From positions 1-33,477 of the IMG/VR virus record IMGVR_UViG_3300029193_000102: a DNA stretch of 33,477 nt; one strand, 5' to 3'. The notes beneath the pieces are model-generated. The model had not been told where the DNA came from. It was given only the letters and a program-made list of their open reading frames with translations, and ran no database searches. Position numbers and translations under genes: made by a program. Below are positions 2,321-19,014 of the stretch, piece by piece. The stretch comes from a virus (lineage: Duplodnaviria > Heunggongvirae > Uroviricota > Caudoviricetes). How positions within the stretch are numbered: the stretch's first letter is position 1; every line of letters starts with the position of its first letter.

Positions 2321-4762
2321 TTAAAAATCAGCCTGACTCGGGATCAGTTTTTGCCAGATAGCTGAAACGTATTTTGCCTGGTAACGAGCGTCATCAAGTG
2401 CATTATGGCGCTCACCTTCGAATGGAATAGCCGTTCTGGCATCGAAGTCTATGGCTTTCCCCAGCTCAACGATTGTGCGTACATCGCGATCGTTGTAGTA
2501 ACGCCACGGGCAGGGGATCCCCTGCCGTTCGTATGAACGGCGCAAAATCGTGTTGTCGAAGTTGGCTCCATTTCCCCAGACCTGAACAAAAAATTCACCG
2601 GAGTTTTCGTCGATAAATTCCCGCAATTGTAACAGTGCATCATCTAACGGGATTTCATCGGTCATAATGGCAGATTGCGCTTCGCGTGATTGCTTAAGCC
2701 ACCATTTAATGGTGTCCCGATCAATGACTCCGCCAGCAGTTTCCAGATCGATAGTCTTACTAAATTCCGGTCCCATATCTCCGGTTTGCGGATCGAAAAA
2801 TATTGCACCTATTGAGATGATCGGGGCATCAGGATTTTTTCCCATGGTTTCAAGGTCGATCATTAGATGGTCACACGTCCTGCTGGTGGATGTGATTTCG
2901 TGATGACCGTTCACCTTAATTGAGTGATCTGCCGTCTCGCCAGTTTTATTATCGCTGGCGTGATGCTGATTGCCGCCAGGGTTCTCCTTGTGTGGATGTT
3001 CAGCGCCTTCCATTTCCTCCGGATCATTTTCCTGAACTTCAACCTGATTCTCTTCATCGAATGTTTCCTGGTATGTTGCGTCGCCCATCACCGCGCCACA
3101 ATCAGGGCAGTTGCCGCCACCGCTCTGACCGCAGGCGGTGCAGACTTTTTCCGGTTCCTGTTGCGCTACTGGTTCGGATTGTTTCGTTTCTGGCTCGTTT
3201 TGTAACGCATTTGGGCTGTTTTGTTCCGCTTTTTGGTCGTTCCGTTCCGATTCATGCTGGTTCTGGTTCACAGAATCGCGAGTCTGGATCCCCTTGACCC
3301 ATTTCGGATCATTAGGGTCGCTAATCCCCTCAACAAATTCACCACGCGATACAGCAAGTAACTTATCGGCGTCAGGCTGGCTGATATTGGCTGCCTGCAT
3401 AATTTTGTTTACTTCGTCAGCGGTGACTTTTACTTGGTTAGCGGAACTCACCTGCGACTGAGCATCCAGCGACTGCGCGTTTTGGCCATGTTCAGTTGTA
3501 TCCGGTTCCATTGTTTCAGTTGTTGCCTGTTCACCTGCCATTGCGTCAGATGGTTGTGGTTTTTCTTCTTCTGTTTCACGCTCAGTAACCACCTCGCGGT
3601 TAATTTCTTCCAGGATATCTTTTTCCGGCGTATGCCGGGCAGCTGTGAGAGTTTCCTTGCTGGGGTTCTCGTGATCAGTTTCCGTCAAATAGGCGTTGAT
3701 ATACCCCTGAAGGCGTCCCGGGTAGTGATAAAATTCAGGGTGTGCGCTTCGGATAAGTGCAAAAATAGCGGCGCGGGAATAGTCCAGAATACCCGGGGTT
3801 GCACGAAGTGCTGCGGACCATTCTTTGAACGGACTTTCTTTGTTCAGGACTACTTCTTTTGCGCGACGATAAACGCTGCCCGGAATTTCATAAATATTAA
3901 AATCCATCGGAAGTGTGGATGCTGCAATCTCCACATCCAGTGTGTCGAGGGTGTGTACTAAATTCGGATTGCGATCGGTTTTGTTCCCACCGCCAGCATT
4001 AGCACCGAAAGCCGTGCGGGTGATGCGTGAAACACGATTTCCTTTCATCCACTCTTTTGTCAGCAGACCCCGATCAGTGTAGTCAGCGTCCAGGTATGCT
4101 TCGAAAAAAGCAGTTATTAGTCCCAGGTCTGAATTACCAGGATTAGGGAAAACTTTGTCAGTGTCACGAACCAGTTTGTGGAGGTCGCGAATCTCCAGCG
4201 AGTCGAGCAGACTGGTTTTATGCGAAATAGCCAGGGCAGTAACAGCCGGTAGTTCTTCAGCCCGTGCAATGTGTAATGCCTGGAGTTCGTCGCGTGAAAC
4301 GTGCGTTACTGGTTTTTCGCTGCCGTGTTGAGCAAGCCAACGAATGGGCAGTTCCTGACCGGAGACAGGCAGAAGCATGCTCTCCTCAATCTCAGTCATG
4401 TCTTCGCCGTTGATGTTGGTATTGTCAGTGCTGGCTGGTTTGTCCCGAACAGAGGGGGAAGGGCCGATAAATGTCATTGTGATGCCATCTTTCCCGCCTT
4501 TTTCATAGCGGTTGCAGAATTCAGTATCAAACACGCCTTCTGGCGGAAGGTCGTCAACAACGGGCAAATTGACGCGGACGGGTTTTTTAAAGTCGTCTTC
4601 ATCATAATCGTTGTCATCCATTGCGGTAATGCAGCGGGAGATTGCAACAGATAATTTTTTTGCTGTAGTCCAGTAAAAACCACCTTTAATTCCTAGGCGT
4701 TTTCTTACTTTGTCATTTTTTGCTTCGCAATATAGTGCAAATTCTTCTTTATCAGTGCTCAT
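2321..4762 (-). CDS. Large exonuclease-like protein: C-terminal DEDDh-type 3'-5' exonuclease domain, central Cys4 zinc ribbon, acidic linker, uncharacterised N-terminal half (possibly the intact form of Qin YdfE)
   Basis: 813 aa; C-terminal motifs [10 protein letters not shown] (Exo I-like) and [13 protein letters not shown] (Exo III H-x4-D-like); [16 protein letters not shown] zinc ribbon; Qin-like gene order int - ydfE - ydfD - dicB. Confidence 0.7.
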
Positions 4763-4855: not shown

Positions 4856-5047
4856 TTAAAGACCTGCCGGGATTTCGTTATTATCCTGGTGAATAACTTT
4901 ATCGACCGGATAACAGTTGCCTGGAATTTTCTGTTCGGTTGCTGCTGCCATACATTCCTGCATTGTTCTGTGAACACTGACTGCAATATCAACTGGCTCT
5001 CCGGAAACAAGAAAAACCGTCAGAATAAGTGCAAATACTGGATTCAT
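4856..5047 (-). CDS. ydfD: YdfD-like small protein with N-terminal hydrophobic segment (Qin lysis-associated peptide)
   Basis: 63 aa from ATG 5045..5047 with AGGA upstream; MNPVFALILTVFLVSGEP... signal/TM-like N-terminus; directly downstream of dicB as in Qin. Confidence 0.55.
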   Translation of the reverse strand: MNPVFALILTVFLVSGEPVDIAVSVHRTMQECMAAATEQKIPGNCYPVDKVIHQDNNEIPAGL

Positions 5048-5232
5048 TGTGCACATCCTTTTGGCATCAGACGTAAACGGGCCAGCATTGAGACAATGCA
5101 TACTTTATTTAATAACTCCCGTTCGTGTTTTCTTTTGTTAATGGCATCTTCAGTAAATACAGGATTACTGATAGTGACGCCAATTTCAAAACAACCTTCA
5201 GACGTATTAACGTTTGGTAATAACGTTTTCAT
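5044..5232 (-). CDS. dicB: DicB cell-division inhibitor
   Basis: 62 aa from ATG 5230..5232 with GAGGA 8 nt upstream; MKTLLPNVNTSEGCFEIGVTISNPVFTEDAINKRK... matches recalled E. coli K-12 DicB in length and sequence. Confidence 0.7.
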   Translation of the reverse strand: MKTLLPNVNTSEGCFEIGVTISNPVFTEDAINKRKHERELLNKVCIVSMLARLRLMPKGCAQ

Positions 5233-5401
5233 TATCGCGTCCTCAACAATGAATTTTGTGATGCAGTGCCTGGTGCCTCCAGGTGACGTTAACCAGTTAA
5301 CAATTAACGCCGGATACAGAGAATCCACCCATAACACTGTTTTTGGTTTTAACTGTTCCGCGTGCGCTCAGCCGCATTCACCACATCACAAAATTCACTT
5401 T

Positions 5402-5459
5402 AAAAAGGGCGGCAGAGCAGTCACGGAGTAAAACTGATACCGCCAAACGTCACCAGAAA
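5402..5459 (-). ncRNA. dicF: DicF small RNA (53 nt at 5407..5459) with 3' stem-loop and U-tract
   Basis: Minus-strand sequence TTTCTGGTGACGTTTGGCGGTATCAGTTTTACTCCGTGACTGCTCTGCCGCCC followed by TTTTT matches recalled DicF; lies upstream of dicB as in the Qin dicB operon. Confidence 0.7.
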
Positions 5460-5799
5460 ATTGATAACAGAGGGCGTTGCAGCGGGGTTGTCACTTAAGC
5501 GTATGGTCAACCTGACAACCCGGTGTCCTCAACGGGGAAGGAATAACCCCGCCATACTTACCGCCGCGCCATTTCGCGGGTTGCCACAACCGGAAGCGCA
5601 CGGTCGACGAAAATTTAACGACAGGCTATCTATGAACCAGCTACCTCGCCGTGTGCTTTCGCGTTATGCTCTGACTTTTCAGAGAAATATCCTTTCAGTA
5701 AACTGTCAGTGCCGGATGTTCACCCGTGTCCGGCGCACGCACTCCACTTCACCCGTGGAGAACTCCTTAATTACCAACCTTAGCTTCGTTGGTTAGCTA

Positions 5800-6018
5800 T
5801 TAACGCGGGTATGTAATCATTCTGGCAATGCTTAATGCCGCTGCTTTTTCCAGATTGGTGATATCCTGCTCCAGAGCGGACAGATTTTCAGCCTGCTTAG
5901 CCCTGGCTTCATTGGCCCATTTCAGATCCTGCGCTGCATTAATTTTCTGGCGCATCCACTCATAAAGTTCATCATCGGTATAGTCTGGCGCGATGATGAC
6001 GGGTTCTCGTTTCTGCAT
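5800..6018 (-). CDS. Hypothetical 72-aa protein (position and size equivalent to Qin YdfC)
   Basis: ATG 6016..6018 with AAGGAG 6 nt upstream; predicted coiled-coil-rich small protein; same strand as the dicB module. Confidence 0.5.
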   Translation of the reverse strand: MQKREPVIIAPDYTDDELYEWMRQKINAAQDLKWANEARAKQAENLSALEQDITNLEKAAALSIARMITYPR

Positions 6019-6089
6019 GTCGGCTCCTTGTGGTTAGCGTTGCCTGCTTTTAACCACGTCAGGCGAGGTGGTATCCTCTGAGGGGTCTG

Positions 6090-6446
6090 TTACTCGAGAG
6101 GAAATTGGTTATGAGTACAATCAAGTTTTCTTGCCCAGAATGTGGTGGCGAAGTCTTTGACACATCCTTTAAGCCGCAGGGCTCTGACAGTTTCGCGGGA
6201 GCCATCTGCAAAAATTGTGGTCACCTTGTAACTGAAGATGAGTCCTCGCAGTTCGATGATGAAATCGTTGACAATATCTTCGGTGCACTCACCAGAGACT
6301 TTCTGAAGTAAAGGCGCATACCGCTTAGTTACCGCTCTGATAATTCTTACCTGTCCGGCAATGGCGCTGATGTCAATATAAAGCGCCATTGCTGCTTCTT
6401 TGCCGATCCCGGGATGCCTTCCATTCTGATGTTTGACTTCGCCCAC
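6090..6446 (-). CDS. Hypothetical 118-aa protein (GTG start); conflicts with the antisense zinc-ribbon ORF at 6111..6311
   Basis: AGAGGA 7 nt upstream of GTG 6444..6446; same strand as the surrounding early-left operon; no recognisable motif. Confidence 0.3.
   Translation of the reverse strand: MGEVKHQNGRHPGIGKEAAMALYIDISAIAGQVRIIRAVTKRYAPLLQKVSGECTEDIVNDFIIELRGLIFSYKVTTIFADGSRETVRALRLKGCVKDFATTFWARKLDCTHNQFPLE
6111..6311 (+). CDS. Hypothetical 66-aa zinc-ribbon protein (CPECGG...CKNCGH); antisense to the 6090..6446 ORF
   Basis: ATG 6111 with GAGAGGAAA upstream; two CxxC pairs ~22 residues apart; opposite strand to neighbouring genes. Confidence 0.35.
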   Translation: MSTIKFSCPECGGEVFDTSFKPQGSDSFAGAICKNCGHLVTEDESSQFDDEIVDNIFGALTRDFLK

Positions 6447-6636
6447 TGAGAAATCCTCTGTTTCCCCTTAACGCCGGGGTAGCGGAACAAAAACCTGCTG
6501 CATAGTTATTAAAGTTGAACCCTGCCGTCATGTTCTTACGCCTCGGGCTGGCTACTTAACCCCTGACCACTGCCTGGTAACTCGAAGTATTGCCCTGCAT
6601 TCTGTGGGGCGGGGTGGGTTGGTATGAAAAGAAGGA

Positions 6637-6673
6637 TACCCATAGGTATTTAAAAAGTAAATACCTATGGGTA
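6637..6673. promoter_or_regulatory. 16-bp perfect inverted repeat TACCCATAGGTATTTA / TAAATACCTATGGGTA (5-bp spacer); candidate operator upstream of the dicB-type operon
   Basis: Arms at 6637..6652 and 6658..6673; lies in the 270-bp non-coding gap between the repressor gene stop and the first early-left ORF. Confidence 0.35.
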
Positions 6674-6715
6674 AATTTTTGCGGTGTCTTAACTGGTGAC
6701 TAGTTGTTTGGTGAG

Positions 6716-7135
6716 CTATGATGCGTTTTGTGCTTTCTTTTTACGGATTTCTTCGTAGATCATATTGTAATACTGTTTTTTCTCTTCAAGAGTTTTTAAT
6801 AATTTATCCGCTTCACTTTCTGGCAGTTCGTCTAAGAGATCTAAAAAAATACGTTGTCGTGGCGTTAGAACCCTTGTTTCATAACTGGAGGCTGTGTTCG
6901 TTGATGATGAAACGATACCATCCATCCATCCCCGGGGTAACCCAAAGGACTCTTCGATAATCTCCACCATATCATCAGCGATCCGTTTTTTTCCCTTTTT
7001 CCCCTCTGGGTACAACATTCTTGATACATAAGAAGGCTCGCGCCCGATCTTTCTGGCCACGTTAACCGCTTTACCATCGCATTTCTCATCACGAATTTTG
7101 ATGAGTTGCTGTCGTCTAAATTCATATTTGTCCAT
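6716..7135 (-). CDS. Prophage repressor, HTH (DicA/RacR-like immunity repressor), possibly translated leaderless
   Basis: 139 aa; HTH-like segment GKAVNVARKIGREPSYVSRML; C-terminal FLDLLDELPESEAD resembles recalled DicA; divergent from a Cro-like gene; no SD before the ATG but a TATTAT -10 (7142..7147) sits just upstream. Confidence 0.7.
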   Translation of the reverse strand: MDKYEFRRQQLIKIRDEKCDGKAVNVARKIGREPSYVSRMLYPEGKKGKKRIADDMVEIIEESFGLPRGWMDGIVSSSTNTASSYETRVLTPRQRIFLDLLDELPESEADKLLKTLEEKKQYYNMIYEEIRKKKAQNAS

Positions 7136-7141
7136 AGGTAA

Positions 7142-7211
7142 ATAATAGATGCGATTACCGCAAGGTAAACAACCTGTGGGTATTGACTTTTGTTTACCTG
7201 TGGGTATTCTT
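7142..7211. promoter_or_regulatory. Divergent promoter/operator region: direct repeats ACCTGTGGGTATT (7172..7184, 7196..7208) overlapping a rightward promoter (-35 TTGACT 7183..7188, -10 ~7205..7211) and a leftward promoter (-35 GTTTAC 7165..7170 rc, -10 TATTAT 7142..7147 rc)
   Basis: Repeats and hexamers read directly; spacings 16-17 bp; placement between the divergent repressor and Cro-like genes. Confidence 0.4.
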
Positions 7212-9685: not shown

Positions 9686-10456
9686 ATGGAAACCGTATCT
9701 GACGCACTGAAAGCACTGAAAAAAGCCTCTTCACATGTGGTGGCAGCTCGCCTTGGAATCAGTCGTGAAGAGGCTGTCAACGAGCTGTGGGAACTCAAAA
9801 GAAAAGGCGTCGTTGATAAAACTGGTCACACCTGGTTTCTGGCTGGCGAAGGTGAATCCCGGGTAACCGAAGAGCGGCCAGTAAAATCTGAAGCACAGGA
9901 TATGCTGACCGGGGAGGTCGAACAAAAAGTTACCGCAGACATGATGATTGAGTTTATCGGTCAGGATGGGGCTAAAACGTGTGAGGAACTGGCGGGTAAG
10001 TTCGGTGTCAGTACTTGCAAGGTTGCTTCCACGCTGGCGGTGGTAACCGCAACGGGGCGGCTGGCACGCGTTAATCAGAACGGTAAATTTCGTTACTGCA
10101 TGCCGGGCGATAATTTACCAGCAGAGCCGAAAGCCGCGCTGGTAACGGAAAGTGATGGTAAGGCCTTTCCTCAGCCAGCAGGTGCTGCGTTACCAGTCCG
10201 GGAAGCCGCAACACAGGAAGAAATTAAAACAGAAACTGTGGCGGACATTGTGCAGCCGTTGCCATCGTTTACCGAAACGCAAGCAGATGAGCTGATTTTT
10301 CCGTCCCTTCGCAGGGCAAACCTGGCGCTGCGCAGGGCGAAAAGTGATGTTCAGAAGTGGGAGCGAGTCTGCGCCGCGCTGCGGGAGCTGAACAAGCACC
10401 GGGATATTGTTCGACAGATTACTGATTCTTCCCGCCGTGTTGTATCGGAAAAGTGA
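9686..10456 (+). CDS. Hypothetical early protein, 256 aa, two winged-helix-like segments
   Basis: GGAGG SD; SHVVAARLGISREEAVNELWELKRKG and TCEELAGKFGVSTCKVASTLAV segments. Confidence 0.55.
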   Translation: METVSDALKALKKASSHVVAARLGISREEAVNELWELKRKGVVDKTGHTWFLAGEGESRVTEERPVKSEAQDMLTGEVEQKVTADMMIEFIGQDGAKTCEELAGKFGVSTCKVASTLAVVTATGRLARVNQNGKFRYCMPGDNLPAEPKAALVTESDGKAFPQPAGAALPVREAATQEEIKTETVADIVQPLPSFTETQADELIFPSLRRANLALRRAKSDVQKWERVCAALRELNKHRDIVRQITDSSRRVVSEK

Positions 10457-10471: not shown

Positions 10472-10864
10472 ATGGCAAAAGTATTTACACCAGAAGAGCG
10501 GGAAGAAGTGAAGGCGCGCATTGTGGAATTCGTGCGCCTGAGCGGACGAGAAACTTTTCGACAACTGGCAGATAAAACGGGTGTCAGTAAGACCGCTATT
10601 CGTCGTTTATCTGGTGCGCTTGCGGCCAGTGGTGATGTCTGGCTCTCTGGTTGCGGGGTATTTCCATCAGAGCAGGCGTATCGCGTATGGCGTAAGACAC
10701 CGGAGAAGGCTGCTGACCCGACACTGATTCGAAAGTTACCTGACGGAGAAATACGTCGTTACAACAGACGGCAGAACATAATTTTTCGTGAGTGCCGCCA
10801 GAGCGAAGTTATGCAGCGTGTGCTGGCGTTCTATCGGGGAAACTTTCAGGAGGTGATGGAGTGA
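10472..10864 (+). CDS. Hypothetical early protein, ~130 aa
   Basis: ATG 10472 with GGAGG 6 nt upstream (ORF track begins at TTG 10457). Confidence 0.5.
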   Translation: MAKVFTPEEREEVKARIVEFVRLSGRETFRQLADKTGVSKTAIRRLSGALAASGDVWLSGCGVFPSEQAYRVWRKTPEKAADPTLIRKLPDGEIRRYNRRQNIIFRECRQSEVMQRVLAFYRGNFQEVME

Positions 10865-12225: not shown

Positions 12226-12394
12226 TTTTGGTTCAACTAAATACAACGTCAGTTTTGAAGCATGGCATGAACTGTTAATGGACTATGCAGAGTTACGTGG
12301 TGGCAGTGCTGCTGATGCTGAAGCATGGCGTGATGATTATGAAGCAGGAAAAACTCCGGTCGAAGCATATTGTGATGAGTGGGGCGATGAATGA
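12218..12394 (+). CDS. Hypothetical 58-aa protein (below the ORF-track size cut-off)
   Basis: ATG 12218 overlaps the upstream stop and its TGA overlaps the next ATG (12391); translated by hand as MADFGSTKYNVSFEAWHELLMDYAELRGG...CDEWGDE. Confidence 0.4.
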   Translation: MADFGSTKYNVSFEAWHELLMDYAELRGGSAADAEAWRDDYEAGKTPVEAYCDEWGDE

Positions 12395-12906
12395 GCGAGA
12401 TTAATTATCAGGAAGGGCATGAAACGGCAGGGCAGGCAAAACCAGTTGCATGGCGATATCGCTACGTGAAAAAAGACGTTACAGACTTTCAGGGGAAGCC
12501 GTGGGCTGGTGACTGGAAATATGTACCGACAAAAGAGGATTGTAACGACAGGCCGAACTATGAAATTCAGGCCTTATTCATCGGCCCGCCAGTCCCGGTG
12601 ACATCAGAAGGACTGGTTAAAGCCGTGCGCTTTTATGAACAGGTAAAGCGTGAGAATCCGCCAGTCGAAACAGGAGCATGGAAGGATGCTGTTGACTGGG
12701 TGCTCAGAGAGGCCTGCTGCGCTGCCATTCTGGGTAAAGCCGACAATCCACCAGCATCCGGCAATCAGGTTAGCGAATTAACAATGTGGGTTAAACGACT
12801 GGTCAGTCAACTGAAAAAAGCTCAGCCGGACTGCAAATTACCGGAGAAGGCGATGGATTACCTGAAACGAAATGGACTGATAAGCGTGGAGGATGTTTTA
12901 CGATGA
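12391..12906 (+). CDS. Hypothetical early protein, 171 aa
   Basis: ORF track; translationally coupled to the upstream small ORF. Confidence 0.55.
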   Translation: MSEINYQEGHETAGQAKPVAWRYRYVKKDVTDFQGKPWAGDWKYVPTKEDCNDRPNYEIQALFIGPPVPVTSEGLVKAVRFYEQVKRENPPVETGAWKDAVDWVLREACCAAILGKADNPPASGNQVSELTMWVKRLVSQLKKAQPDCKLPEKAMDYLKRNGLISVEDVLR

Positions 12907-13026
12907 ATATTTAGACTAAAGAGTTTGTAACGCTATGTAAGTGATTTTTTCTGGTTTAGATATTTATATGTCCGGCCAAATTGAGGTGTGTTTAAATGTT
13001 ATTGCTCATTGATTGTAGGGGGAATA

Positions 13027-13206
13027 ATGAAAAACGCATTGCAGTTTTTGTTTGTTGCGTTCTGGTTGTTCGCATCATGTATGCCCATCATCTTCACAGC
13101 AAGGTATATGGAAAAAATTGATGTTTTGATATTAATGTTTGGACATATAAATGCCCTTTTTTTAGGGGTGTTCATGGCGGTCATGTGCATTGAATACTGG
13201 CGGTAA
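13027..13206 (+). CDS. Small two-helix membrane protein (59 aa) in an AT-rich islet
   Basis: ATG 13027 with GGGGGA upstream; two hydrophobic stretches; surrounding DNA is conspicuously AT-rich. Confidence 0.4.
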   Translation: MKNALQFLFVAFWLFASCMPIIFTARYMEKIDVLILMFGHINALFLGVFMAVMCIEYWR

Positions 13207-13465
13207 ATACAGCGAACGCCATTGGTTTAGTTGGATATTTACTGTGCCGGACAAAAACGGTTTGCGGGGAAATCTTAGTTAAGTAGAATAACTGCGGGTG
13301 CTTGAGGCTATCTGTCTCAGGCATGAACACCAAAAGGCAGATAGAGAAAAGCCCCAGTTAACATTACGCGTCCGGCAAGACGCTTAACATTAATCTGAGG
13401 CTCAATCTATGAACGGCAAATCTAGGTTAGCCTCTTACGTGCCGAAAGGCAAGGAGAAGCAGGCT

Positions 13466-13621
13466 ATGAAGCAGCAAAAGGCGATGTTAGTCGCCCTGAT
13501 CGTCATCTGTATTACCGTCATTGTGACGGCACTGGTAACGAGGAAAGACCTCTGCGAGGTACGAATCCGAACCGGCCAGACGGAGGTCACTGTCTTCACA
13601 GCTTACGAACCTGAGGAGTAA
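13466..13621 (+). CDS. hok: Hok/Gef-family type I toxin (HokD/RelF-like)
   Basis: 51 aa MKQQKAMLVALIVICITVIVTALVTRKDLCEVRIRTGQTEVTVFTAYEPEE, near-identical to recalled HokD; AAGGAGAAG SD 7 nt upstream. Confidence 0.8.
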   Translation: MKQQKAMLVALIVICITVIVTALVTRKDLCEVRIRTGQTEVTVFTAYEPEE

Positions 13622-13691
13622 GAGACCAGGCGAGGGGGAAATCCCTCGCCACCTCTGATGAGTCAGGCATCCTCAACGCACCCGCACTTAA

Positions 13692-13717
13692 CCCGCTTCG
13701 GCGGGTTTTGTTTTTTC
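13692..13717 (+). terminator. Rho-independent terminator after hok
   Basis: CCCGC-TTCG-GCGGG followed by TTTTGTTTTTTC. Confidence 0.55.
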
Positions 13718-15121: not shown

Positions 15122-15487
15122 ATGACCGAACGCATAGAATTTGTTTTGCCTTACCCGCCGACGGTGAACACTTACTGGCGACGCCGTGGCAGCACATATT
15201 TTATCTCGGAGGAGGGAAAGCGTTATCGCCGGGCTGTGGCGCTTATTGTTCGCCAGCAGCGGCTGAAATTAAGCCTGTCCGGAAGGCTGGCGATAAAGGT
15301 GATTGCAGAGCCACCGGATAAGCGTCGTCGCGACCTGGACAACATTCTGAAAGCACCGCTGGATGCGCTGACGCATGCGGGAGTGCTCATTGATGACGAG
15401 CAGTTTGATGAAATCAATATTGTACGTGGTCAGCCAGTATCTGGTGGACGGCTGGGTGTGAAGATTTACAAAATTGAGAGTGAGTGA
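15122..15487 (+). CDS. rusA: Holliday junction resolvase RusA
   Basis: 121 aa; matches recalled RusA motifs LPYPPTVNTYWRRRG and DKRRRDLDNILKAPLDALTHAGVLIDD. Confidence 0.85.
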   Translation: MTERIEFVLPYPPTVNTYWRRRGSTYFISEEGKRYRRAVALIVRQQRLKLSLSGRLAIKVIAEPPDKRRRDLDNILKAPLDALTHAGVLIDDEQFDEINIVRGQPVSGGRLGVKIYKIESE

Positions 15488-16050
15488 GCGTAAATATGAT
15501 ATATCCGGAAATTACAGGCAAAAGCGGCGAGCATTTGCGTCTAAAAACGCTGGAAGCAGTCTGGATCCAGGGGAAATTACGGATGTGGGGGCGGTGGTCG
15601 TATATTGGCGGCGGTAAGACGGGAAATATGTTCAACCAATTACTGACCTCTAAAAAGCTGACAAAAACGGCAATTAACGAGGCGCTCCGGAGGATGAAAA
15701 AAGCTGGTCTGGACAAACCTGAACTTGAGGCTTTTTTGCGGGATATGATCAACGGCAATCAAAAAAGCTGGCTGGCACATTGTACCGATTCAGAGGCGTT
15801 AATAATCGACAGGGTTATTGGTGAAGTCCTGGCAGGCTATCCCGGGCTGCTCAATGTCCTGAGTCAGCGTTATGTGGGGCGGGGGATGACTAAGCGCAAA
15901 ATGGCTGAACTGCTGAATGATGCACACCCGGAATGGAGTTTAAGAACCTGTGAAAGACGCATTGAGCATTGGCTAAAGGTGGCAGAATTTATTTTGTACA
16001 AACCAATGGTTATGGCTTTTGGTATAGAGAAAAAAGTTATTGCTTTTTGA
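15484..16050 (+). CDS. Putative late-gene antiterminator (Q-like), assigned mainly by position
   Basis: 188 aa; lies between rusA and a strong terminator that precedes the late genes; alternative start ATG 15496. Confidence 0.5.
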   Translation: MSVNMIYPEITGKSGEHLRLKTLEAVWIQGKLRMWGRWSYIGGGKTGNMFNQLLTSKKLTKTAINEALRRMKKAGLDKPELEAFLRDMINGNQKSWLAHCTDSEALIIDRVIGEVLAGYPGLLNVLSQRYVGRGMTKRKMAELLNDAHPEWSLRTCERRIEHWLKVAEFILYKPMVMAFGIEKKVIAF

Positions 16051-17043: not shown

Positions 17044-19014
17044 ATGGCATTTAAACACTACGATGTGGTCAGGGCGGCATCGCCGTCAGACCTTGCGGAT
17101 GCGCTTGCTCAAAAAATTCGTGAAGGATGGCAACCATACGGCGGGCCGTTTTCTTCGTACACGGATGATGGCGCAGCACTTATTCAGGCGATTGTCGCAG
17201 AAGGTAATGTCACCACACCTGTGGTGGTGAAGCCGTCGGATGGAGAAGGCGCAGTTATCAGCACCACCAGCAACCCGGAGTATTACTTTGTTGTTGCCCT
17301 GGCCGGGCAGTCAAACGGTATGGCGTATGGTGAAGGGCTTCCGCTGCCGGAGACATATGACCGTCCGGACCCGCGTATTAAACAGCTGGCGCGTCGCAGC
17401 ACTGTCACGCCGGGTGGTGCGTCCTGTAACTACAATGACATTATTCCTGCGGACCACTGCCTGCATGATGTTCAGGATTTGAGTAAGTTTTCACACCCGA
17501 AAGCCAGCGCAGCTCAGTATGGATGCGTGGGGCAGGGATTACATATCGCGAAGAAATTGTTGCCGTTTATTCCGGCGAATGCCGGTATTCTTCTGGTTCC
17601 GTGCTGCCGTGGGGGTTCTGCATTTTTGGCGGGCGATGAAGGTACCTTCAGCGAATCCACCGGCGCAAGCGAGACCTCGGCACGCTGGGGTGTAGATAAG
17701 CCACTGTACAAGGACCTGCTTACCCGTACTCAGGCCGCACTGAAGGCCAACCCTAAAAATATTCTGCTTGCAGTGGTCTGGATGCAGGGCGAGTTTGATT
17801 TGAAACAGGGTGCATACGCCACTCAGCCGGGGCTGTTTGATTCCATGGTGGAAAAATATCGTTCTGACCTGTCGGAATTCGGAGGTCAGTGTCTCGGGGG
17901 CTCTCCGTCATCAGTTCCCTGGATTTGTGGCGACACGACCTACTACTGGAAGCAGACTTATTCTTCGCAATACGATGCGGTGTATGGTGCATACAAGACG
18001 AAATCCGCAAAAAAAATCTTCTTTGTGCCGTTTATGACGGATGAAAACGGGCGAAATGTGGGTACCAACGAGCCGTCAGAAGATCCGGATGTTGCGGATA
18101 TTGGGTATTACGGAGCCGGTGGTCGAACGGACGCCAAAACCTGGACGACGGCTGACCGTAAAACGCATTTTGGATCATGGGCACGTCGTGGGATTATTTC
18201 CGACCGTCTGGCAACGGCGATTCTTGTGCATGCCGGGAGAACCGCTGAATTCATTACCGGAAAACAGCCTGATACGGTGAAGCCCACCGGACCTTCCGGT
18301 GAAGGTACGGAGAGAGAGCCGGAAGGTCCGGTCAGTAACCGAACCCTGATGAGTCTGCTGGCGTCCGGCGAAGACCTGGCATCACAGGGCTGGCGCTATT
18401 ATCACAAACCGGCGAGCGGAGACAATGTTAACAAAAACATTGCTGAAGCGGTGGTCAGTGATGCGGGGGCTACGGGAGGTAAGGCCCTGCAACTGAATAA
18501 ACCGGAAAACCACATCTGGTTTCTGGAGCATGATGCAGCCGGGCAGGGGGCAGAGTTGCTGAAGAAAGGAGGACGTGTGAGCGTACGGTTTAAGTTGCCG
18601 GGTTCACTGGTGCCGAATCAGTTTGCCCTGGGCATTTACTGGCAGTTGTCGTCCCTGCCGGAGGGAGTGACGCTGGCAGAGGAAGGCAACGACATGCTGA
18701 TGTCCTTCTTCCTGCAGACGGATGCGACGAACCTGAACGCGATGCACCACAAGAAGCCGAATGCGAAGCTGGAAACGTTCGGGGTCTTTGATAACGGATG
18801 GCACACACTGGCTTTTGAGTTTGCCGGAAACAACAGCATTCAGGTGACGCCGGTACTGGATGAGAAACGGGGGACGCCGTTCACACTGGTGAAATCTCCG
18901 GCATCAGGGGCGGTGGACAAACTGCAACTGACAGGCATATCAAAGGCGGCGACATATACGCTGCTGATTGACAGTGTGAAGGTGGAAGTGAACAACGCGG
19001 ACATCGCGGCATGA
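17044..19014 (+). CDS. nanS: Prophage sialate O-acetylesterase (NanS-p type; DUF1737 N-terminus plus SGNH/SASA esterase domain)
   Basis: 656 aa; GGAGG SD; N-terminus MAFKHYDVVRAASPSDLADALAQKIREGWQPYGG; esterase motif ALAGQSNG; position between Q and lysis genes as in Stx phages. Confidence 0.8.
   Translation: MAFKHYDVVRAASPSDLADALAQKIREGWQPYGGPFSSYTDDGAALIQAIVAEGNVTTPVVVKPSDGEGAVISTTSNPEYYFVVALAGQSNGMAYGEGLPLPETYDRPDPRIKQLARRSTVTPGGASCNYNDIIPADHCLHDVQDLSKFSHPKASAAQYGCVGQGLHIAKKLLPFIPANAGILLVPCCRGGSAFLAGDEGTFSESTGASETSARWGVDKPLYKDLLTRTQAALKANPKNILLAVVWMQGEFDLKQGAYATQPGLFDSMVEKYRSDLSEFGGQCLGGSPSSVPWICGDTTYYWKQTYSSQYDAVYGAYKTKSAKKIFFVPFMTDENGRNVGTNEPSEDPDVADIGYYGAGGRTDAKTWTTADRKTHFGSWARRGIISDRLATAILVHAGRTAEFITGKQPDTVKPTGPSGEGTEREPEGPVSNRTLMSLLASGEDLASQGWRYYHKPASGDNVNKNIAEAVVSDAGATGGKALQLNKPENHIWFLEHDAAGQGAELLKKGGRVSVRFKLPGSLVPNQFALGIYWQLSSLPEGVTLAEEGNDMLMSFFLQTDATNLNAMHHKKPNAKLETFGVFDNGWHTLAFEFAGNNSIQVTPVLDEKRGTPFTLVKSPASGAVDKLQLTGISKAATYTLLIDSVKVEVNNADIAA

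Follow-up and report, generated by a model that had tools for sequence, protein, structure and literature searches.

Comparison of two diverged lineages provides strong evidence that ORF59, a 59-codon open reading frame at 13027-13206 on the plus strand of the window, is a genuine gene whose protein was under purifying selection. The window is the whole 33,477-nt stretch of lambdoid prophage DNA analyzed here, and its mean GC content is 0.512. We regard ORF59 as a real gene because it has a diverged paralog of exactly the same length and because of the outcome of a permutation test on the differences between the two. With a probability of roughly 60%, ORF59 is an accessory protein-coding gene of the hok-bearing lambdoid prophages of Escherichia and Shigella, whose product would form a helical hairpin in the inner membrane, be expressed by read-through in the early-right block and act at the level of the membrane.

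The AT-rich module and its borders

The ORF list of the window has the layout of a lambdoid prophage, with an integrase-sized ORF at ~1.0-2.1 kb, an early region and then terminase-/portal-sized late ORFs. The rightward early block runs in the order replication genes, ead/Ea22-like genes, ORF59, hok/sok, rem, DUF968, rusA and Q. Immediately 5′ of the AT-rich islet are rightward small early genes encoding Ead/Ea22-like, DUF7167 and 171-aa PHROG-660 (12391-12906) proteins, and a complete hok/sok locus is found ~90 nt 3′ of ORF59. The hok terminator is followed by a Rem-like ORF and then by the DUF968/YdfU gene, while the candidate lysis ORFs, which were taken from the ORF list rather than from a family scan, lie around 19.9-20.9 kb, ~7 kb downstream of ORF59. 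The features of the module and its surroundings are as follows.

12907-13026, plus strand: non-coding AT-rich part upstream of ORF59, putative 5′ UTR, at least 95% conserved in 1571 E. coli records, with the SD GGGGG at 13018-13022
12962-12973, plus strand: 5′ arm of a perfect 12-nt inverted repeat (partner 13141-13152)
13027-13206, plus strand: ORF59, predicted two-helix inner-membrane protein of 59 aa, MKNALQFLFVAFWLFASCMPIIFTARYMEKIDVLILMFGHINALFLGVFMAVMCIEYWR (shuffles, paralog, dN/dS, permutation, AlphaFold2 and intactness)
13141-13152, plus strand: 3′ arm of the inverted repeat (partner 12962-12973), within ORF59 codons 39-42 (G-H-I-N)
13207-13250, plus strand: 3′ flank of the module, ending where the homology with ORF59-less hok loci begins (phage matches)
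13262-13289, plus strand: putative hok mRNA promoter, TTGCGG-16 nt-TAGAAT, identified by eye
13296-13471, plus strand: hok mRNA 5′ leader and Sok-target region (Rfam RF01794, sok, 112.4 bits, E 2.9e-26)
13409-13621, plus strand: mok frame (Pfam PF01848 HOK_GEF, E 2.9e-22; PHROG 251, MokW-like, E 1.5e-31)
13466-13621, plus strand: hok, 51 aa, nested in mok, with the HOK_GEF match; PGAP calls a near-identical gene hokD
13690-13707, plus strand: intrinsic terminator 3′ of hok, the first terminator-like site downstream of ORF59
15122-15487: RusA (Pfam)
15484-16050: Q-type antiterminator (Pfam)
17044-19014: NanS-p-like esterase (Pfam)

The original prediction, which was made from the DNA letters, described an AT-rich islet at 12907-13408 that carried a single hydrophobic ORF and lay directly upstream of hok. 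The sharp drop in GC content was confirmed by windowed calculation. No other 350-nt stretch of the window is as AT-rich as 12907-13256, whose GC content of 0.363 (vs 0.512) lies at the 0.1 percentile for stretches of this length. In 200-nt windows, the GC content was 0.355-0.39 across 12800-13299, 0.49-0.52 upstream and 0.485-0.56 downstream. The position next to hok was also borne out, as the hok locus is real by both its HOK_GEF match (E 2.9e-22) and its match to the sok model (112 bits).

The extent of the islet needed revision. Phage hok loci that lack ORF59 are homologous to the window only from ~13249-13253 onward, and the islet proper therefore ends at ~13250. Thus, the part from 12907 to ~13250 stands, while 13262-13408 consists of the putative hok promoter and the hok leader. 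The promoter-like sequence at 13262-13289 has a score of 8/12, which is under the threshold of the promoter scan, and its position fits the start of the Rfam match at 13296. It probably is the hok promoter and would belong to the hok locus rather than to the islet. The resulting module has sharp homology borders at the stop codon of the upstream gene and at ~13250. An imperfect 25-nt direct repeat (12956-12980 and 13231-13255, 72% identity) is found on either side of ORF59 and is not interpretable.

Coding status, paralog and linkage to hok

ORF59 starts with the ATG at 13027, which is preceded by the GGGGG at 13018-13022, and ends with the TAA at 13204-13206. The peptide given in the original prediction is encoded exactly there on the plus strand, and the description of a single hydrophobic 59-aa ORF with its own SD holds. 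The length of ORF59 by itself is unremarkable: ATG-initiated ORFs of at least 59 codons occurred in 19% of dinucleotide shuffles of the islet, and ORF length was thus rejected as coding evidence. When a GRAVY value of at least 1.2, that of ORF59, was demanded in addition to the length, 12 of 5000 shuffles qualified, and none of the 5000 did so once an SD-like motif was also required. Within ORF59, T accounts for 53% of the second, 36% of the first and 24% of the third codon positions.

A HMMER scan of 1.8 billion representative proteins revealed a second lineage (P0037/P0042; lineage B), whose protein has exactly 59 aa and shares 44% identity and 69% positives with ORF59 without gaps. At the DNA level, the two are 60% identical, again without gaps, and differ at 25, 17 and 30 of the 59 first, second and third codon positions, respectively. 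Nei-Gojobori analysis gave a pN of 0.33 vs a pS of 0.72, which is saturated, and a dN/dS of ~0.19. When the same 72 substitutions were distributed at random over ORF59 in 20,000 trials, only 2% of the trials remained free of stop codons and 0.2% reached the observed amino acid identity, while the observed BLOSUM62 score was reached in 0 of 20,000 (p below 5e-5). The 120 nt upstream of the ORF are only 52% identical between the two lineages, with indels. The ~40 nt after the ORF59 stop codon resemble the paralog locus by eye; the automatic alignment left them unpaired. The original prediction had named loss of the coding sequence in homologous islets as a reason to abandon the gene; we found instead that the reading frame is kept in the same-length paralog at 44% identity and a dN/dS of ~0.19.

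These comparisons bear on the possibility that ORF59 is spurious and that the islet, AT-rich and non-coding, nucleates H-NS, assists the hok promoter as an upstream element or is a spacer. Such a reading could draw on the 19% of shuffles that match ORF59 in length, the tendency of T-rich DNA to favor hydrophobic ORFs, the lack of a CDS at this position in the RefSeq records inspected and the fact that some phage annotators call the opposite strand. It is, however, largely refuted by the paralog of identical length, the permutation result and the dN/dS value as well as by the joint rarity of length, hydropathy and SD in the shuffles, and we consider it very improbable. We also rejected the minus-strand ORF itself, which has 63-83 aa and is called "hornerin" or hypothetical in three phage records. 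It mirrors the plus-strand frame in A-rich form and lacks an SD, and polymorphisms truncate it to a variable extent (stop or Leu at 13000; Gln to stop at 12953). Some phage records therefore annotate the wrong strand at ORF59. A 72-aa form of the protein starting from the GTG at 12988 was also rejected. In the paralog, a TAA in this frame lies 18 nt ahead of the ATG, and the conserved form is therefore that of 59 aa.

ORF59 is widespread. Of 5426 complete E. coli genomes, 1570 (~29%) carry the islet (12907-13262), every copy being at least 95% identical, and none of the 40 RefSeq rows listed has an annotated feature at this place. For the exact peptide, GenBank and UniProt hold the names "membrane protein [Shigella flexneri]", "putative membrane protein [E. 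coli ATCC 25922]" and UniRef A0A0J2DWW3; the product of ORF59 is named in GenBank as a hypothetical or putative membrane protein. A full-text literature search with the peptide string returned 0 papers. The first search of protein databases yielded only Escherichia and Shigella sequences with at least 76% identity, many of which were truncated or frameshifted. Several frameshift alleles occur at the T7 run at 13157-13163, and they are rare in the unbiased sample of IMG/VR copies collected via a 23-nt anchor outside the ORF, where ORF59 was intact in 114 of 116 copies. In another sample it was intact in 197 of 198 copies. Among copies of the module, ORF59 differs at 0-5 of its 180 nt, while the last 46 nt of the upstream gene differ at up to 13 positions and the 203-nt hok leader typically at 11-18. 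The islet is thus more uniform than its flanks, which suggests that the module spread recently among mosaic prophages.

The paralog was found in 1045 of the 5426 complete E. coli genomes, including those of Nissle 1917, 83972, ST131 and ATCC 11775; its carriers are B2-type E. coli, for example Nissle 1917, ST131 and ST73, and no annotated feature was found under it in any of the 30 RefSeq rows listed. It is located between ttcA, which is followed by an integrase fragment, and sit/ABC-3 fragments, uspF, ompN and ydbK. Further comparison revealed that the prophage in the window has a relative at the ttcA-uspF locus, colinear with it but heavily deleted. This remnant keeps ~110-nt pieces of the DUF1627 and DUF977 genes (window positions 10153-10264 and 10735-10846) and a 66-nt piece of hok (window positions 13534-13599), and the ORF59 paralog is the only element of that prophage left whole. 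GTDB genomes, IMG/VR and metagenomes were scanned at the DNA level with degenerate patterns, and 1.8 billion representative proteins and, by profile, 5.8 billion proteins were also searched. The relatives of ORF59 fell into two lineages only, at 93-100% and 44% identity; a third lineage was not found, nor were homologs outside Escherichia and Shigella. A seeming 52% relative (L005) turned out to be a frameshifted decayed copy.

Both lineages are associated with hok. In 73 of 96 sampled lineage A loci, hok is present at the same spacing, and in 22 more it is broken at its ATG by one identical IS insertion. ORF59 is intact in all of these 22 loci, and keeping ORF59 is thus independent of an intact hok. 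The paralog is followed, ~50 nt past its stop codon, by a 5′-truncated hok remnant corresponding to the 3′ half of the gene, and the ORF59-hok arrangement therefore predates the divergence of the lineages. By this comparison, the linkage of ORF59 to hok is old, older than the split of both lineages, which is at odds with a recent, incidental association of the two genes.

Such a linkage could mean that ORF59 is a partner of Hok, namely that its membrane protein adjusts or gates the action of Hok, or protects against it, during prophage induction. The order of the two genes has been kept in both lineages despite saturated synonymous divergence, their spacing is the same in 73 of 96 loci and no terminator lies between them. 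In addition, hokW-sokW is reported to aid the release of prophage Sp5 (PMC8621323), a setting in which a co-transcribed membrane protein would be plausible, although this is not evidence of one. We nevertheless consider the partnership improbable, given that 57 of 60 hok-bearing phage records are without ORF59 and that ORF59 is intact where hok has been destroyed by an IS (22/22) or, in lineage B, deleted. Moreover, text searches of a survey of Hok diversity, localization and genomic context gave no passage on a neighboring small ORF or such a partner (10.1101/2025.08.07.668861).

Predicted protein, expression and recent evolution

The prediction of a two-helix membrane peptide agrees with the AlphaFold2 model, which was built from a 10-sequence alignment and consists of helices at residues 2-25 and 30-58 with a mean pLDDT of 71.5. 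Hydropathy profiles also contain two hydrophobic segments in both lineages. Based on the positive-inside rule, both termini would face the cytoplasm (N-in/C-in) and a loop of 4-7 residues would face the periplasm, because the terminal residues K2 (R2-K3 in the paralog) and R59 are positively charged, whereas the loop carries no charge in ORF59 and is acidic in the paralog. Invariant across the lineages are W13, S17, C18, P20, I21, I22 and T24, then L36, F38 and G39, and finally E56, W58 and R59 at the C-terminus; N42, A43, L44 and G47 are nearly invariant, and the conserved positions also include Y27 and position 40 (H/Y). The conserved residues cluster in the periplasm-proximal halves of both predicted helices and in the C-terminal E56-x-W58-R59. 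This pattern points away from non-specific damage to the membrane and toward specific helix packing or the binding of a partner. The conserved residues may thus mediate a specific helix-helix contact, either in self-association or in the binding of a host or phage membrane protein.

Searches of Pfam and NCBIfam (E up to 1 in both), PHROGs and PADLOC gave no match for ORF59, and the family searches with the paralog were negative as well. A sequence profile search of the PDB returned nothing, and Foldseek searches of BFVD and the PDB with the AlphaFold2 model returned only non-significant, generic helical hairpins (best E 0.6 and 3.2, respectively). The suggestions of the original prediction that the peptide could be a membrane toxin or a superinfection-exclusion protein thus gained no homology support from the family, PADLOC, PHROG and fold searches. 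ORF59 is also outside the HOK_GEF family, as it has no PF01848 match and hhalign against the adjacent Hok gave a probability of 2.7%.

The consensus scan found no sigma-70-like promoter or terminator-like site of the islet's own in 12907-13262, although such a scan may miss a promoter in AT-rich DNA, and no promoter- or terminator-like site between the upstream gene and the hok terminator. Given this result and the position of ORF59 in a rightward early block, ORF59 would most likely be transcribed by read-through from the early-right promoter of the prophage after induction, with a transcript able to reach hok. The likeliest outcome would be a membrane-level accessory effect in lytic growth, such as a kil-type perturbation or the blocking of a membrane partner.

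RNA structure was considered in the context of a different reading, in which ORF59 is a second membrane toxin of type I TA-like character whose mRNA is kept inert by a long-range fold and/or an antisense RNA and which forms a two-toxin cassette with hok. The protein is small and very hydrophobic and adjoins a type I TA locus, and the perfect 12-nt inverted repeat would pair the 5′ UTR with codons 39-42. The four polymorphisms in this repeat (12962-12973/13141-13152) all preserve pairing in the plus-strand RNA, including a G-C to G-U to A-U series, and the stem belongs to the MFE fold (z = -1.98). The paralog, however, lacks the 12-nt stem, its best complement there being 8 nt. The stem is thus weak evidence, and we treat it as an unexplained detail. 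A local hairpin of the MFE fold would sequester the SD, but it was rejected because common alleles at 13000, 13006 and 13020 disrupt it. On the minus strand of the islet, the consensus scan detected no antisense promoter- or terminator-like site, and at E up to 1 Rfam matched neither strand of 12907-13262, although a novel sRNA could escape both scans; Rfam gave nothing useful at the paralog locus. Moreover, ORF59 has two predicted TM helices within its 59 aa and is unrelated to Hok in sequence (hhalign probability 2.7%), and an unguarded toxin would not be expected to stay intact in a remnant stripped of its regulation. We therefore give this second-toxin reading little credence. The fold of 13195-13300, which bears on a terminator of the module's own, had a z of -0.85. 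A 10-nt stretch of ORF59 (13167-13176) is complementary to the loop of the hok leader (13322-13331), but this match was discarded because it is at chance level and is not maintained.

A bolder version of these ideas would have ORF59 and hok form an ancient two-gene membrane module, with the hairpin acting with or on Hok, for instance in gating or timing depolarization at induction, or would make ORF59 a second toxin under a long-range mRNA fold; the ttcA-uspF copy would then be a domesticated small protein, kept by the host while the remainder of the prophage decayed. We hold this version to be doubtful.

The polymorphism among present-day copies differs from the divergence between lineages. 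Nonsynonymous and synonymous segregating changes number 9:1 in lineage A and 3:0 in lineage B (12:1 in total), and the density of variable sites in ORF59 (10/180) is like that in the non-coding flanks (11/120 and 2/56). The 12:1 ratio carries no sign of present-day purifying selection, at a low power that follows from copies being at least 95% identical. As calculated from the counts and the numbers of sites, it fits neutrality (P ~0.26) and not an omega of 0.19 (P ~4e-4). The excess may reflect constraint that was relaxed lately, mildly deleterious variants that are still unpurged or diversifying selection.

A relic gene would be consistent with these observations. ORF59 would then have been functional in ancestral phages and would now be silent, being AT-rich and probably bound by H-NS, and drift neutrally, with its copies intact because they are young. 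Besides the polymorphism ratio and the equal site density in the ORF and flanks, the frameshifted alleles on record and the decayed copy in L005 agree with this reading, the intactness of lineage A copies has little power where all are at least 95% identical, and the only known source of lineage B is the remnant of a dead prophage. In that remnant, however, the other elements have been cut to ~60-110 nt, yet ORF59 and its SD are whole in 18 of 18 sampled copies, and 114 of the 116 anchor-sampled lineage A copies are intact. An excess of nonsynonymous polymorphism is usual in very recent within-species comparisons and is no proof of lost function. We therefore regard the relic as unlikely, though credible, and favor an accessory gene whose product would act at the membrane.

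Comparison with known systems

ORF59 belongs to a new uncharacterized family of a familiar kind, that of the prophage accessory small membrane proteins, and its recognition adds a widespread family of this kind to the accessory gene set of E. coli prophages. ORF59 or its paralog is carried by ATCC 25922, Nissle 1917, 83972 and ST131, among others, and the two occur in ~29% and ~19% of complete E. coli genomes, respectively. In studies of prophage hok, such as those of phage release and prophage stabilization, ORF59 is a conserved neighbor of hok/sok to control for. Should ORF59 prove to have a membrane phenotype, its length of 180 nt, its natural knock-outs and its two diverged alleles would make it an easy genetic handle; without a phenotype, it would merely be another uncharacterized prophage gene.

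Phage morons are independent accessory units, examples of which are HK97 gp15 and lambda bor and lom. Like them, ORF59 deviates in composition from its neighbors, is a small accessory gene with a patchy presence among related phages and has sharp homology borders. Comparison with related hok phages, which the original prediction had proposed, showed that 3 of 60 hok-bearing phage records carry ORF59 and its islet, while the other 57, including 933W and Stx phages, do not and are homologous only from ~13249. Unlike morons, ORF59 is without a detected promoter or terminator of its own, lies in the early-right block rather than in a late operon and has an old linkage to hok. The moron reading thus stands as to foreign composition (GC 0.363 vs 0.512) and patchy presence, but not as to an independent transcription unit, for which the consensus scans found neither promoter nor terminator.

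Members of the Hok/Gef family have a single N-terminal TM helix and a conserved periplasmic tail that contains Cys, and type I TA systems are defined by an antisense RNA antitoxin and a small hydrophobic toxic peptide. ORF59 is like Hok in that it encodes a small hydrophobic membrane peptide and adjoins hok in the same orientation, and with 59 aa and a GRAVY of 1.2 it would fit the size and hydrophobicity of type I toxins. It differs from Hok in its two predicted helices vs one, the lack of a PF01848 match and the lack of a detected antisense RNA, and most hok loci are without ORF59.

Two-TM membrane proteins of phages include the superinfection-immunity protein Imm of T4 and class II holins/pinholins such as S21 68, which ORF59 resembles in its size class and its predicted two-helix hairpin. 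It differs from both in having no sequence or fold match, in lying outside the lysis cassette and in having neither a charged C-terminal tail nor a dual-start motif. With respect to holins, the C-terminus of ORF59 is only IEYWR, PHROGs gave no lysis match and the gene is ~7 kb upstream of the candidate lysis ORFs. Likewise, PADLOC and PHROG searches placed ORF59 in no known exclusion or defense family, and its BFVD and PDB fold matches were non-significant.

ORF59 is also similar in kind to the small membrane proteins of the E. coli chromosome that sORF searches and Ribo-seq brought to light (reviewed in PMC12648545). Like these proteins, ORF59 has fewer than 60 aa, is hydrophobic and was missed by standard annotation; unlike them, it is without a known partner or phenotype, is borne by prophages and is restricted to Escherichia and Shigella.

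Interruption of hok in islet-bearing prophages

The homology among islet-bearing prophage loci ended exactly at the start codon of hok in 22 of the 96 loci sampled, and all 22 of these hok-interrupted IMG/VR loci had a single junction in common, in which GAAGCAGGCTAT was followed directly by TGTTAACACC... In the PhiR42_1 phage, the DNA inserted at hok was an IS whose ORFs were of the HTH_29/HTH_32 and rve_3 types. Thus, the same IS insertion inactivates hok in about one quarter of the sampled copies. ORF59, the gene for a predicted two-helix membrane protein of 59 aa, was intact in the copies whose hok carried the IS insertion.

Hok-interrupting insertion
window 13466-13468: hok start codon, the point of insertion in 22 IMG/VR loci such as locus L090
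L206 (sampled record), about 3090-4475: the same feature

We also noticed that the Rac attachment region of B2-type E. coli contained a colinear, strongly deleted relative of the window's prophage, in which a paralog of ORF59 was retained intact. In one strain (locus L214), a full sitABCD-like operon adjoined the remnant.

Prophage remnant
L208 (sampled locus; E. coli CP042246.1), 4984-7170: remnant between ttcA and uspF
content: integrase fragment; DUF1627 and DUF977 gene pieces of about 110 nt; a stretch of unassigned DNA at 32% GC, about 550 nt long; intact ORF59 paralog; hok 3' fragment; sit/ABC-3 fragments

Boundaries of the AT-rich islet

The PHROG-660 gene upstream of the islet differed in its final 46 nt (window 12861-12906) by 9-13 nt among prophages whose adjoining islets were 95-100% identical. 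This contrast between a divergent gene end and a near-identical islet places a sharp recombination boundary at the stop codon of the PHROG-660 gene, whose family is mosaic and has several alternative C-terminal parts. ORF59 was bracketed by an imperfect 25-nt direct repeat (12956-12980 and 13231-13255; 72% identity, 275 nt apart), the second copy of which spanned the right-hand boundary of islet homology. The repeat could be a trace of module joining or could have arisen by chance. Within the 5' UTR of ORF59, position 13006 was T in the window, compared to A in 96 and G in 2 of the 98 homologous copies sampled, and this T is a change private to the window.

Other features around ORF59, hok and Q

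window 12933-13190, minus strand: ORF annotated in phage records
window 17044-19014, plus strand: 656-aa ORF 3' of Q, with DUF1737, SASA (sialate O-acetylesterase) and DUF6645 domains

The minus-strand ORF, annotated with 83 aa as "hornerin" or hypothetical in ON470612, ON470619 and PV340562, was shortened to 63 aa in the window by a stop/Leu polymorphism at 13000. The inspected RefSeq records had no annotated CDS on either strand at 12933-13190. The minus-strand ORF looks spurious.

The 656-aa ORF encodes a NanS-p-like prophage esterase; such esterases are typical accessory genes of Stx-like lambdoid prophages.

Codons 47-50 of ORF59 (13167-13176) were perfectly complementary over 10 nt to the first hairpin loop of the hok leader (13322-13331). 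The expected frequency of this complementarity was near chance, and it was absent from 26 of the 98 sampled copies. Directly 3' of hok, the hairpins and terminator were covered by a weak Rfam match to isrK (13630-13711, plus strand; E 0.005), an Hfq-binding RNA of the Gifsy-1 prophage; its 26 bits were below the gathering score of 50.
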